Origin: Somniosus microcephalus | Lineage: Eukaryota | NCBI GenBank assembly: GCA_052327205.1 | Contig: CM126214.1 | Span: 170,252,001-170,316,000 of the forward strand | Direction of reading: 5' to 3' | Length of the DNA stretch: 64,000 nt | Part shown: positions 6,025-57,570 of the stretch, in pieces | How the letters are laid out: each line of letters begins with the position of its first letter | How positions within the stretch are numbered: the stretch's first letter is position 1 | Notes under the pieces: model-generated | Databases searched by the model: none | What the model saw: the letters and a program-made list of their open reading frames with translations, nothing else | Told to the model about the DNA's origin: nothing | Made by a program: the position numbers and the translations under genes

Positions 6025-6122
6025 TAAAAACAGAAAAATGCTGGAGAAACTCAGCAGGTCAGGTAGCATCTGTGAAGAGAGAAACGGAGTTAACGTTTCA
6101 GGTCGATGACCTTTCATCAGAA
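6025..6122 (-). mobile_element. Penelope-like element 3' terminal fragment (about 100 bp)
   Basis: Shark PLE tail AAAACAGAAAAATGCTGGAGAAACTCAGCAGGTCAGG..AGCATCTGTG; TSD CTCCCCTTT(T)AAGA at 6012-6024 and 6123-6136. Confidence 0.8.
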
Positions 6123-6124
6123 CT
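6088..6124 (-). ncRNA. Minimal type I hammerhead ribozyme motif (PLE-associated)
   Basis: Minus strand reads AGUU-CUGAUGA-A-AGGUC(AUC)GACCU-GAAAC-GUU-AACU: intact core boxes, 5-bp stem II, stem I AGUU/AACU, palindromic stem III AACGUU. Confidence 0.75.
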
Positions 6125-6247
6125 CCCCTTTTAAGAACTGGCCGGAGCCAGTATGCCTGTGTTCCATTGCTGACTGACATCACATGAGCTTCGCCAGCGC
6201 TCTGAGGTAGCGTCTCGCTCCTCGGCCTTTGCGCCTTAAGACAGGTG

Positions 6248-6817
6248 TGTAGCAGTTCGTGTAGATCGCCACTAAATAAGAGAGTTTGACTTCGACGAAC
6301 TATCAACAAGTTGTTTATTTACAGGAACAGACTAATTACAGCAGGTAAGATAGCAGGTAAGATGGCTGACTGTAGGAGCACCGTGGTGTAGGTCTTGTCC
6401 CAGCGGGGACTCCACGAGGACTGAGTTCGCAGTCCTGTGGGGAGCGTGATGACGTCATCGCGTTTGTGTTATGATGTCATCACGTTCGCGTTTCCCGCGC
6501 TTAGGGCGTCACGTGATGCGCGTCGTTGCGCCGCTGGCCGTTGAGGCCGAAGACGCTAGGCCGGGCTGTGCCGGTGCTTGCTGCAGGAGCGGAAGATTGC
6601 GTCGCTCCTGTCGGCGGGCCGTTGAGGCCGAAGACGCTAGGCCAGGCTGTGCCGGCGTACGCACATCACGTCGTACGTGACGTGACGTCAGCGTGCTAGG
6701 GCGCGCCTTAAAGGGGCAATGGCCCCAACAGGTAAGTTAAAAGGGCAACGGCCCCAAAAGGTAAGTTAAAGGGAATTATGTGTCTCAATGTAAGGGACAA
6801 CCAGTGGTACCGCCACA
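6248..6817 (-). mobile_element. Solo LTR (570 bp, Gypsy/ERV-type), CpG-rich and young
   Basis: TGTAGCAGTTC...GTACCGCCACA inverted TG/CA termini; 4-bp TSD GGTG at 6244-6247 and 6818-6821; minus-strand AATAAA at 6314-6319; internal 39-bp direct repeats at 6536-6574 and 6617-6655. Confidence 0.85.
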
Positions 6818-8145
6818 GGTGTGAAGCGTCTGATTTAGCGCTCCAATCACCTCCAGGGGCAATAAAAGCCAAGTTTGCCGTCTGAGGTGATGATTAGCGC
6901 CAGGCGCTAAACTTTGCGCACGGCTGCTAATGGCGCCCCAAACGGGGCGATACTGAATTTTTCCCCCTTGGTTTTTAACAACTCATGGAAATATAATTGG
7001 TTTATGTGTTGAATTGTGCCTGGGAGTGAAATGATCAGTTGAAGCTTTCTCATCATAGTCGGTATTGTTTTCTGTATCAGACAGGATGTTAAATATATTG
7101 TGTAAATATTCTTCCATAAAGCTTTCTTTCACACAGTTTTGGTGAAATCAATACCTATCCTCAAACCATTTGATCTATCTGGAAAGGACTGAAGAAGGAT
7201 TGTTCTCTAGGTTTAATTGGGAGCTTATGTGGCAATTATGCGGGCATATTATTAGAATTAAATTGTTACTCAGATACAGATATGTAGAAGACACTGCATC
7301 TTTGGTTATTGATTCATTCCAAAAATACATGCGCCTAGAACGAAGTCTGCGTAACCAACAGAAGTTAAGTAATCATTTGTACCTCCTGAACTCCATTTTA
7401 ATTCCTTCTAAATTATCCACAAACCTTTTCATAATGCACTGTGTGGTTAAAGGGCGGCACTAACATGGAATCTTACACTATGGTTACCCATTTCCTTTAA
7501 CGACAATTACTTGCATGCACAACTTGAAAACTTCCACCACTTTAACAGGCTGATACAATCACATTTTATTTCAGCTCATGTGCCACTTGACACACACTTC
7601 TCAACCGCTCATCCTCCCCTAATTTATTCAATCTTGTCGCAGGAGAAATTGGTGTACAATGCCCAGGAGAGGTAAGCCCCCAGAGGTAGTATGCCTAACC
7701 TTAAGCACCTCATGCCCTACGAGAGAGAAGCATGGAGCTTATGGTAGGCATGGTGTTCTTGCCATGAGAGATGGCTGGTTGTGGGACATCTTGCCAGCAC
7801 CAAGTTAGTGACTGACTGCTTACACTGTCACCCTGTGAAGCACCGCACAGGTACAAGGTTCTACTCCCTACTCTATCCTCTTTATCCCAAGGGATAATGC
7901 TCGCCCATTCTTCGCTTCTGTTGTCCTTTCCTGCAGAACCACCACAGCAACAGGGAAGTTGGGGGCACAGGAGGAGGAAGCCTACCCATGAGTTCCTGCA
8001 GAGACCCTCTTGCCCTCTGTTCCTCTGCCCCATGCCATACCTGCTCCTGAGAAGCCCTCGCTGTGAGTGGGGGAGAAGATGAAAATCTTCCAGTGGTCTT
8101 GCCCTGTCGGAAGAAGTGAGAAGCACATCCAGGTCTGCATAAGCT

Positions 8146-54396: not shown

Positions 54397-56066
54397 AATG
54401 TGTGTAAAGTGGTAAGCACTTAGCCATATGCAAATTATTCAGGAATGATCTTCCTGTGATCGAATCACTTATTCGCAATGAGTATGATAACTGAAGCAAA
54501 AAAAGACTATTATAGGGGGGGGAAAAAGAGCTGCACTTTGGCATGATGTGTTGTTGAGTACTGACATAGGCTGTCTATTACAGTTTTTTGGAAGAGGTTT
54601 GCTTTCTGTTTCCAGGACCAAAAGAAGCAAAATTCCACTCTGTATGACACCTTCTGGACGTATATTCAGGACTTATTTTATGTCTTGTACTGAGGTGAAA
54701 TGTAACAATGACCGCTTTTTTGTTTACGATTAGGAGATGGCTTAGCAGGGCAACATCTTCCATTGTTTAGATTTGTGAACAGGGCCTGAAGCACCCAGAT
54801 CTCTTCAGATACCTGAATATTTAATGCGTGCGTTCAGCTCTGAAACTCAAATTGAACCTCTGGCATCTAGTTGCTTCCCTGGACAAAGTTGTCTTCAGTG
54901 GGCACTGCAAGTCATGGGCAATCACCAGTACTTGCTGTTATACTGTCAATAGGGAGAAACCCTTGCCCAAAATTCTTAGCTAGCTGATAATGAAATTTTA
55001 TTTTGTGATAGAAATCACTGTTTCAGCATTCTTTGCTGCCTCAAATAAAACCAAGATGGAGCATTTACTGTATTCCATTATTCAGACAATTGCTGATTAC
55101 ATTGTTAGCTTGTAAACAAATCTAACATTTTCTGTGAACCCAGTGAATTGTTGCTATGAAAAGGCATTGGATAAATATGTTAGTGAAAATTGATTATAGC
55201 AGTTCGTCCAAAGAGCAAGGAAGGAGCCATATTTAAAGTTATTAGAGAATAACTCTAGTCAAAATATTGGCTCACGTTAAGTGTGTTGGCTTAGAAGATA
55301 TTTCCACATAGTTGTAACAGAGTACAAACAGTTTGACTGTGGCCTTAATGGTGGCTTATAGTTAGACGGGTCCTTCTTCCTTTGCTTAGGGAAATTTATG
55401 TAGGATATATGGAGGAGAATGAATAGCCAGGAAAGATGGCTTGGTCATCAAAGAGTAAAAGTCCTTTGTCCTACCACATTTGTGGACAAATTCCTAAATC
55501 TAAATATAACAGTACCACTACACCTTCTAAATTATTTATCTTTTTCCAATAAAAGCTTTAAAAAAAAAAATATGGAAGTTGACTATGGTCATTCTCCATG
55601 ATCTTGAGTCACCCATGCGACCCAGTGCTTAGCAGTAGATTTAGAGTGCAATTATAGTACAACTGCATTGTTGATGCAAAGTGGCCATGTGATGTAAATG
55701 CAAACTAAATCCAGAAGCAGGGTCCAAGCTGACTGGGAGTGAAGCAGAGTGAGATTCCTTGGAGGAGGAGAGGGTCTTATTTACTTGAGTCAGGTCAGAC
55801 CTTAACTCCAGATTGACCCTGCACAAGTTTAGTGTCAGTATGAAGCAGAAACTGCTGTGTAACAACCTCTAAATTTGTAGTGTGAATGCATCCTTTCTCT
55901 TTTTTTATTGATTTAATCTATTTTCCGTTGCACAAACTACTTTGTTTCAAGCATTGTTTTTAAAATTGTCAGGCTTGATTCCGTGTTTCACATGGGGATC
56001 AATAAATTATGATTGTTCGTGTTTTGGATTTAATTGACTTGATTTCTTTTAAAATTTTGCTGTCAG

Positions 56067-56102
56067 ATGGAACATGACGATGAGCCGAAAATTAGGCAAG
56101 AG
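56067..56102 (+). CDS. EPB41L1: EPB41L1 36-nt microexon (MEHDDEPKIRQE), probably alternatively spliced
   Basis: ttttgctgtcag|ATGGAA...CAAGAG|gtagtg; 12 codons, phase 0/0; position and length match the mammalian 4.1N segment PEQETTPRHKQE. Confidence 0.8.
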
Positions 56103-57042
56103 GTAGTGTACAGACCACTGTGGACTGGTTTTTACTGTAGTTTATGTGAAACATTTTCATACCTGTTTTAAAATATATCTCCAGTTAGAAGATAACCGGT
56201 TTCTATTTATTTTTGAATGGAGATTCACTCATCAAACTAAATATAGATATAACCTCAGTTAGATCCAACTCATATATCCTTCAAGATTTATCACCTACAA
56301 AATCCATTGAACTGTTGAATTATAATTCAAAACTGGAAATTCATGGGGTTTCAGAGATTAAAAGGCTGAATAATCTGTCTCATTGCCACACAGGAAAGTG
56401 GGTGATAATTTTCTGAATCTTAGTTTATTCATTGTTGTCAGTATACTACTTATACGCTAACCTACATTTCATGAGTGACTGCGATGCTGTCAAAATGCTA
56501 CAGAGACTTCACTCTGTGAAAGATAACTGATTCTTAACTATTAGCCACCTTTTCATGAAATCGTTTGATCACCAGATAAATTGCATTGCTGTATAGTACT
56601 CCATGCTTTTTACTTGCTTGCTGTGCACAGAATCCCTTGCCATTGATTTCTTTTTAGTGTTAATTTTCCATTTTGTGGACTGTATTTATCAACATTAGAG
56701 ACATGTCGTTTCCAGTTAGATGCAATGTCACTTCTACTTGATGCAGAAATTCACTCTAGAATGTGTAATCGTGTTTTCTTATCCATTGAGGAGGAGGAGG
56801 GGGGGGAGGAATAAAGTGTGAAAGTGCAAATGTAACTTAACACGAGGGAAGGTTGTTTTACAATGGGGGTTGGATCACATTGTCTTGAGTGGTGTCAGGG
56901 TGGCTGGAATTACTGCTGAAATGCATAATATTTGATGTAGGAACTGTTACCATCTCCATCAGAGACAAAACTGGTAACTGCTGAGTTCTGTGTTAAATAC
57001 AGCTTATTACTCACATTTGCACTGCAACTGCTTTAGATGTAA

Positions 57043-57570
57043 AAATAACAACAGAAAATGCTGGAAAATCTCAGCAGGTCAGACAACATCCGTGGAGAGA
57101 AATTTAAGTTGACGTTTCGACTAGGCACTTTGCAGCCTTCCGGACTCAATATCGAGTTCAACAATTTCAGATCATAACCTCGGCCCCTATTACTTTTTTA
57201 CTTATAATTTTTTCCACCCCTTTGTTTTGGGTCCTCCTCCCCCCCCCCCCCCCTTTTCCTTTTGTTTCTCTCTCTCTCACCTGGCAGCTGTCTCTTACCT
57301 GCCAGTACACTTCACACCTAATCTCAGCTGCTTTTTGTCTCCACGGGCCTATTACCATCTCGTCTGGCTTCGAATGCCTTTTATTGTCTCTTTTGTTTGA
57401 TCGCAGCCTTGCCTTCAATCTATTTTCTTTTCTTTCCAGTTTTGAAGAAGGGTTTCGACCCGAAACGTCAACTCAAATTTCTCTCCACAGATGTTGCCTG
57501 ACCTGCTGAGTTTTTCCAGCATTTTCTGTTGTTATTTCGGATTTCCAGCATCCGCAGTATTTTGCTATCG
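57043..57570 (+). mobile_element. Penelope-like element with inverted 5' pLTR, ORF C-terminus and 3' pLTR
   Basis: 57043-57119 is an inverted copy of 57461-57537; FRLGTLQPSGLNIEFNNFRS* at 57115-57177; 14-bp TSD TGCTTTAGAT(G/T)TAA at 57029-57042 and 57571-57584. Confidence 0.9.
57438..57473 (+). ncRNA. Minimal type I hammerhead ribozyme motif, sense to the EPB41L1 pre-mRNA, with one core substitution
   Basis: AGUU-UUGAAGA-A-GGGU(UUCG)ACCC-GAAAC-GUC-AACU; GUC cleavage triplet; first C of CUGANGA is U. Confidence 0.72.

Follow-up and report, generated by a model that had tools for sequence, protein, structure and literature searches.

Minimal hammerhead motifs of Penelope-like elements in the introns of EPB41L1 of Somniosus microcephalus

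Background

Minimal type I hammerhead ribozymes (min-HHR) have been described in the pseudo-long terminal repeats (pLTRs) of metazoan Penelope-like elements (PLEs) (Cervera and De la Pena 2014, PMC4209133). The present work concerns four such motifs in a window of 64,000 nucleotides from Somniosus microcephalus (assembly GCA_052327205.1, contig CM126214.1, positions 170,252,001 to 170,316,000), all of them located in introns of the EPB41L1 gene. The motif family is of this already known PLE min-HHR type, and the point of interest is the difference at core pair 3-8 between recently copied subfamilies. The shark copies share with the published ribozymes the CUGANGA box, one unpaired base before stem II, the GAAA-palindrome-UH segment, the lack of a stem III and a U-rich upstream flank. 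They likewise occur as thousands of single copies, form inverted pairs 100-700 bp apart, covary among subfamilies and include a U3-A8 variant. Unlike in the published set, A-U and G•U are as common at pair 10.1-11.1 as the usual G-C (22, 17 and 14 of 54 full cores, respectively). The available text of the 2014 paper was found to contain no shark among the alignment rows, no orientation test in introns and no tree of C-G, U•G and U-A cores.

Three further systems are closely related. Endonuclease-bearing (EN+) PLEs of the Neptune/Nematis type (Craig et al. 2021, PMC8557442) encode a reverse transcriptase (RT) followed by a C-terminal GIY-YIG domain with a CX4CxxC linker, and the elements studied here resemble them in this layout as well as in 5' truncation, an inverted 5' copy and a one-sided tail of 30-40 bp. 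This likeness is one of linker and domain order rather than of an RT tree, and the copies of the window are stubs of 0.1-0.8 kb. The function of the hammerhead in such elements has been described as unclear (PMC8557442). Non-LTR retrozymes (Li et al. 2026, 10.64898/2026.07.22.740005) are hammerhead repeats derived from PLE ends, many of them intronic, reported in vertebrates including one cartilaginous fish; the window copies differ from them in that they are not arranged in head-to-tail tandem, have a target-site duplication (TSD) each and, in three cases, keep or adjoin PLE 3' sequence. Finally, the amniote RECK and C10orf118 hammerheads (PMC6155905, PMC3088659) are also type I hammerheads in introns. 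The amniote ribozymes occur singly, show conservation between species and have activity in vitro, whereas the shark copies are young transposon ends that are present in high copy number and lack stem III. No shark report and no intron orientation test were found in the literature searched, and shark families may be listed in the supplements of Li et al.

Identity and anatomy of the motifs

The sequence evidence presented below makes it very probable that the four motifs are passive 3' ends of high-copy PLEs, and that the hammerhead would matter only in the RNA of the element itself, not in the host pre-mRNA. Each copy lies downstream of the end of a GIY-YIG coding region or within a stub of that end, and the subfamilies count hundreds to thousands of members. 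The features of the window are as follows.

6088..6124, minus strand: copy 1, minimal hammerhead with C3-G8, A10.1-U11.1, ACGU stem III and GUU; antisense to EPB41L1
30646..30682, minus strand: copy 2, minimal hammerhead with C3-G8 and GUU; antisense
32061..32097, minus strand: copy 3, decayed, with A9>C, C15.2>U and loss of the palindrome; antisense
57438..57473, plus strand: copy 4, U3•G8 subfamily of the minimal hammerhead, with G10.1-C11.1 and GUC; sense to EPB41L1
57043..57119, minus strand: fifth, truncated copy, the inverted arm of the copy 4 insertion; 77 nt, 95% complementary to 57461-57537
57121..57177, plus strand: final 18 codons of the PLE open reading frame (ORF) with their stop, encoding the C-terminus of GIY-YIG and lying 265 nt before copy 4
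57538..57571, plus strand: 34-nt tail on one side only of the copy 4 insertion, which is flanked by a 10-nt TSD
5455..6967, no strand assigned: MITE-like (miniature inverted-repeat transposable element) carrier of copy 1, with 15-16 nt terminal inverted repeats
13615..63991, plus strand: EPB41L1 (band 4.1-like 1), the host gene, whose twelve exon matches begin with 13615-13722 and end with 63677-63991

The original prediction, made from the sequence alone, had announced four Penelope-borne minimal hammerheads, and all four could be re-read at these coordinates. A relaxed descriptor, in which two core changes are allowed, retrieves exactly these motifs and no others in the window; the count of four nevertheless overlooked the truncated fifth copy at 57043-57119 (minus strand). 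The strict descriptor was applied to an intron sample of 1.664 Mb, composed of the window and 160 stretches of 10 kb in ten genes, three of them on the minus strand. It gives 22 matches versus 0 in the same DNA reversed, and the motif is therefore not a product of chance.

Copies 1 and 2 display CUGA(U/C)GA, an unpaired A and a 5-bp stem II closed by A-U (AGGUC-AUC-GACCU), with GAAACGUU. Copy 4 displays UUGAAGA, with U at 57442, and a 4-bp stem II closed by G-C (GGGU-UUCG-ACCC), with GAAACGUC. Copies 1 and 2 conform to the core of the min-HHR, including the 3-8 pair (CUGANGA ... GAAA N N' UH); copy 4 is U3•G8, and copy 3, with A9>C and C15.2>U, does not conform. The stem III palindrome is ACGU in copies 1, 2 and 4, is gone from copy 3 and reads AGCU in another family. 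Pair 10.1-11.1 is G-C in copy 4 and A-U in copies 1-3, and is paired in 53/54 sampled cores. The predicted anatomy is supported, with a hammerhead core and a palindromic 15.2-16.2 segment without a stable stem III. An Rfam scan of the motifs gave no hammerhead family at E<=5, which is not counter-evidence since the motif lacks stem III. A pyrimidine tract followed by CAG abuts the 5' strand of stem I in an acceptor-like manner at 57420-57441 (plus strand), 30683-30700 (minus) and 32098-32115 (minus). In the Penelope element of D. virilis, the end of the intron is helix I (PMC4209133); in the shark, no RNA joint at this acceptor-like sequence was present among the matches listed.

The Penelope origin is supported by the GIY-YIG C-terminus found directly upstream of copies 3 and 4. 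Within the window only the end of the PLE ORF remains. Upstream of a motif of the copy 4 type, an open frame of 411 aa matches GIY-YIG at E=4.5e-4 (just below the Pfam cut-off) and RVT_1 at E=0.044, and has 149 homologues at E<=1e-30 (the best at 52%) with RVT_1 domains. The translated PLE ORF contains a CX4CxxC linker, and CX2-5CxxC between RT and EN is a mark of Neptune/Nematis (PMC8557442). In most copies that keep it, the ORF end lies 175-300 nt upstream of the motif. All four insertions of the window are bounded by TSDs of 10-15 nt.

Four non-overlapping patterns gave 12,430 exact matches in the genome: 5,269 for the copy 1/2 type, 6,035 and 246 for two patterns around the copy 4 type and 880 for the U3-A8 type. 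Matches are equal on both strands and the pattern controls gave 0. The suggestion that shark introns hold many such motifs is borne out by very many intronic copies. The intron sample contains on average 3.3 element ends per 64 kb, so that the five of the window are ordinary, and 16/64 insertion events of the sample contain both orientations. With well over ten thousand such motifs in the shark genome, the significance at the level of a single gene is small.

The host gene was correctly taken to be a single one. The SAB-domain exon of the window is a 92% match to a shark band 4.1-like protein 1, and transcription of the plus strand is also indicated by stranded RNA reads at two exons. Two further EPB41L1 exons lie ~22-26 kb before the window and others up to 16 kb after it. 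All four motifs are intronic, in three introns, copies 2 and 3 sharing one; copy 1 is included because two exon matches precede the window. The strand of the exons confirms that both intact cores (copies 1 and 2) are antisense to the gene, as is copy 3, and that copy 4 is sense.

Insertion history of the individual copies

Copy 4 belongs to a known complex form of PLE insertion, with an inverted truncated copy in front and a one-sided tail of 34 nt, and is 93-97% identical to many young copies of its subfamily. Its U at 57442 had been read as a C>U core mutation. When both bases are allowed at position 3, the sequence of copy 4 has 687 matches in the genome, with U in all 100 listed; with C3 it has 0 exact matches. 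A private core mutation is excluded by these 687 versus 0 exact copies: the U is the inherited state of the subfamily. Being already present in the master element, it is uninformative on selection at the EPB41L1 locus. In the pre-mRNA, the inverted arm is predicted to base-pair with the strand made of GAAAC, GUC and stem I, which would mask the motif. RNA depth is near zero in the unique intron DNA beside copy 4. For the orthologous site, contigs from a run under another species label extend less than 31 letters into the insertion.

Copy 1 is the front of a 98-nt PLE stub (6025-6122) located between TSDs of 13-14 nt in an element of ~1 kb, called MITE-like here from its inverted ends. Copies of this carrier with an empty site are common, and the identical stub-carrier junction has 642 exact matches in the genome. 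The stub was inserted once into the carrier and then multiplied as a passenger; there was no independent insertion at this locus, and the direction of copy 1 is set by its DNA-transposon-like carrier. The latter also contains a 570-nt insert (6248-6817) with TG...CA ends and a short TSD, which looks like a solo LTR; two copies of it flank ~1.5 kb in stretch L100.

Copy 2 is part of a 5'-truncated PLE end (~30581-30945) with a 15-nt TSD, inside a remnant of a long interspersed nuclear element (LINE). Copy 3 is part of an older PLE end (~31973-32740), in which 32336-32730 is a broken remnant of GIY-YIG. The two motifs are 1,415 nt apart with LINE DNA in between. We considered whether they form a dimer pair or represent both pLTRs of a single element, and rejected each possibility on account of separate TSDs, 75% identity and the lost palindrome of copy 3.

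The 5' ends of 76 copies were also located. They gather at the front edge of the motif (20/76 at -10..+2) rather than at the cut site (1/76 at +29..+31), and many are inversion junctions. A cluster at the cleavage site, considered as a sign of cutting in vivo, is thus absent. By eye, several 5' ends at +25..+31 resemble another repeat inserted at TTAA behind the core. Several hammerheads of the L103-L202 block and of L080 (e.g. 375612/376348, 2832) are apparently split by a 0.7-0.8 kb repeat at TTAA, which mimics truncation at the cut site.

Core pair 3-8 and covariation among subfamilies

Covariation of stem II between subfamilies had been proposed from the two types present in the window. 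These differ by one pair only (A-U versus G-C at 10.1-11.1) and by the loop; across subfamilies the proposal stands, and the covariation is wider than noted. Among the 54 full cores, all ten pairs, including the stem III palindrome and pair 3-8, occur in at least two Watson-Crick types and surpass shuffles of the partners (<=25 of 5,000), with the reservation that such shuffles ignore relatedness and that the placement step favoured pairing. By hand count, the first 100 of the 6,035 rows contain C-G 54 times at pair 3-8, U-A 37 times, U•G 6 times and C•A 3 times. The C•A rows fit decay of CpG, which we infer to be their origin. In the U3-A8 family (L203-L232), the second pair of stem II varies between G-C, G•U and A-U; A•C is absent from the 100 rows listed.

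Trees were built from the DNA upstream of the motif, the motif itself being excluded, with copies having long upstream sequence (32, 23 and 41 rows). The 41-row tree drew on 41/158 copies, family C and three poor rows being left out. The U3 subfamilies group inside C3-G8 lineages (100/100 in the 1,378-column tree), and one short C3-G8 row is placed among the U3 subfamilies in the 41-row tree. U3 arose inside C-G lineages according to these sequence trees, and a single lineage contains C-G, U•G and U-A at pair 3-8. The order of the last two differs by tree: U•G is nested in U-A with 450 columns and the two are sisters with 1,378 columns, while at least two changes are needed for each of them in the 41-row tree.

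A single change at position 3 or 8 of a hammerhead lowers its activity. U3-A8 is known in nature and is active in vitro (PMC3088659, PMC4209133), and a UUGAAGA (U3•G8) core appears in a Saccoglossus row of Fig. S3 (PMC4209133). Term searches of the literature found no published measurement of U3•G8 activity. A tentative interpretation, which we regard as possible rather than probable, is that an active-site pair is in the middle of a swap in a recently active lineage, from C3-G8 through U3•G8 and its hundreds of copies to U3-A8, perhaps twice. If true, such a lineage would allow a direct test of whether cutting by Penelope hammerheads is required for mobility of the element. In any case, the subfamily series at pair 3-8 (C-G, U•G, U-A) and in stems I-III offers natural variants whose individual success is recorded in their copy numbers.

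The same data could be accounted for, with a lower probability, if catalysis were dispensable even for the element, the motif acting as a structural or start-site signal and U3•G8 having spread with a crippled ribozyme. The wobble core was indeed amplified to at least 687 identical copies and most of the 246 others, the 5' ends gather at the motif front and not at the cut site, and 51/54 full cores have GUU, not GUC, at their end. In addition, Naiad PLEs proliferate without hammerheads (PMC8557442). However, pair 3-8 is a tertiary active-site pair and not part of a stem, yet it remains paired, and the stem III palindrome also switches from ACGU to AGCU; together these changes point to selection on the active fold, and we consider dispensable catalysis rather unlikely.

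Orientation in introns and cleavage potential

The original prediction attributed the antisense position of both intact cores to purifying selection against sense copies, which would cut the pre-mRNA and be purged, the survivors being antisense or mutated. This was examined in the ten genes of the intron sample, whose spans were located by matching band-4.1 proteins and CUB domains to exons; the C4 span was omitted owing to its inconsistent exon order. A profile search yielded 95 element ends, of which 86 were kept at E<=1e-4 and nine with E>1e-4 dropped. The resulting counts (sense/antisense) are as follows.

Intact paired cores: 11/11 (11/9 without the window)
Intact cores with stem I of at least 4 bp: 9/10 (9/8 without the window)
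Mutated cores: 14/16
All 86 copies: 44/42
Lone copies: 23/20
Controls of the same sample: LINE RT 79/88, LINE endonuclease 24/36, PLE ORF 14/13

No orientation bias of intact cores was found in these ten genes, and a strong purge of sense-strand intact cores is excluded. Intact and mutated cores do not differ in orientation (Fisher p=1.0; 0.77 without the window), 11 of the 20 intact cores outside the window are sense, and the two-of-two antisense cores from which the idea arose have a probability of 0.25 by chance. Moreover, the U3 of the sense copy is inherited and the direction of copy 1 was fixed by its carrier. These results indicate that introns tolerate the motifs in either direction, which fits the view of a lone minimal hammerhead as inert.

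Monomers of a Schistosoma min-HHR showed no cleavage and its dimers cleaved weakly (PMC4209133). Folding predictions assign only -1.7 kcal/mol to the ACGU duplex and a stem I probability of <=0.02 to all four copies with 30 nt of flank. Two raw RNA runs under the same species label were searched (24% and 31% of their reads). Family reads cross the cut site with a flat sense share (0.31-0.34 and 0.43-0.48 in the two runs), and no pile-up of read starts or ends was seen at any place in the element end in these pooled runs; this evidence is weak because the reads pool all loci and the library selection is unknown.

A mechanism compatible with the passive-end reading may be proposed. Compensatory changes would separate the subfamilies because selection on pairing acted on transposing master elements, whose inserted copies would then decay neutrally. 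Following the model of 2014, partial tandem transcripts of master elements may let two copies form stem III and cut. A lone copy without a stable stem III would need a second partner on the same strand, so that a sense copy would cost the host little and no orientation bias would build up. Copy 4 would, as predicted, be additionally masked by its inverted arm.

Several points weigh against this reading. The 95% interval of the sense share without the window is 0.32-0.77 for intact cores and 0.42-0.64 for all copies, which leaves room for a mild bias. In the four band-4.1 genes alone, window included, intact cores are 2 sense and 5 antisense. In addition, 70% of the ten-gene sample lies in three CSMD-type genes and cubilin, named by inference from their CUB-domain layout, and most of the sample is in genes that are probably tissue-restricted. 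Copy 1 with 100 nt of flank folds full stems I and II (predicted P 0.96). Over the entire element end, antisense reads outnumber sense reads two to one in one RNA run, all loci pooled. Related retrozymes are modestly depleted in Xenopus introns (10.64898/2026.07.22.740005), a depletion that is not strand-resolved, no strand test being found in the available text. The band-4.1 counts, the antisense reads and the Xenopus depletion, together with the antisense position of both intact cores of the window, also speak for the purging of sense copies, which remains very unlikely in view of the balanced counts and of the 687 versus 0 matches of copy 4.

Lastly, domestication of one copy, after the manner of the amniote RECK hammerhead, as an intronic ribozyme that regulates EPB41L1 is suggested by the intronic position and has been proposed for retroelement hammerheads (PMC6155905), but is scarcely credible since the only sense copy is a U3•G8 core 93-97% identical to many young subfamily copies, has neither stem III nor loop-loop contacts, is predicted to be masked and adjoins unique intron DNA of near-zero RNA depth.

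Additional features

LINE endonuclease/RT remnants and repeats resembling short interspersed nuclear elements (SINE-like) are found at 134-1348 (minus strand), 22915-24126 (minus strand), 52071-52955 and 53946-54397 of the window, and the SINE-like repeats attract many multi-mapping RNA reads. A GC-rich 70-nt tandem repeat (24179-24518) followed by a perfect 36-nt inverted repeat (24516-24687) is located at a truncated LINE 5' end.

Outside the window, the distant PLE family C (L083-L102, L043-L059; 34% ORF identity) carries a young and uniform min-HHR with an AGCU palindrome and other stems I and II. At least 10 copy-4-type motifs on the same strand with a regular spacing of 7.8 kb form a tandem array at G000:C3:117052212-117122939. 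Approximately 17 near-identical CUB-exon pairs spaced by 5.5 kb at G000:C8:38555365-38648514 represent either a recent tandem expansion or an assembly artefact.

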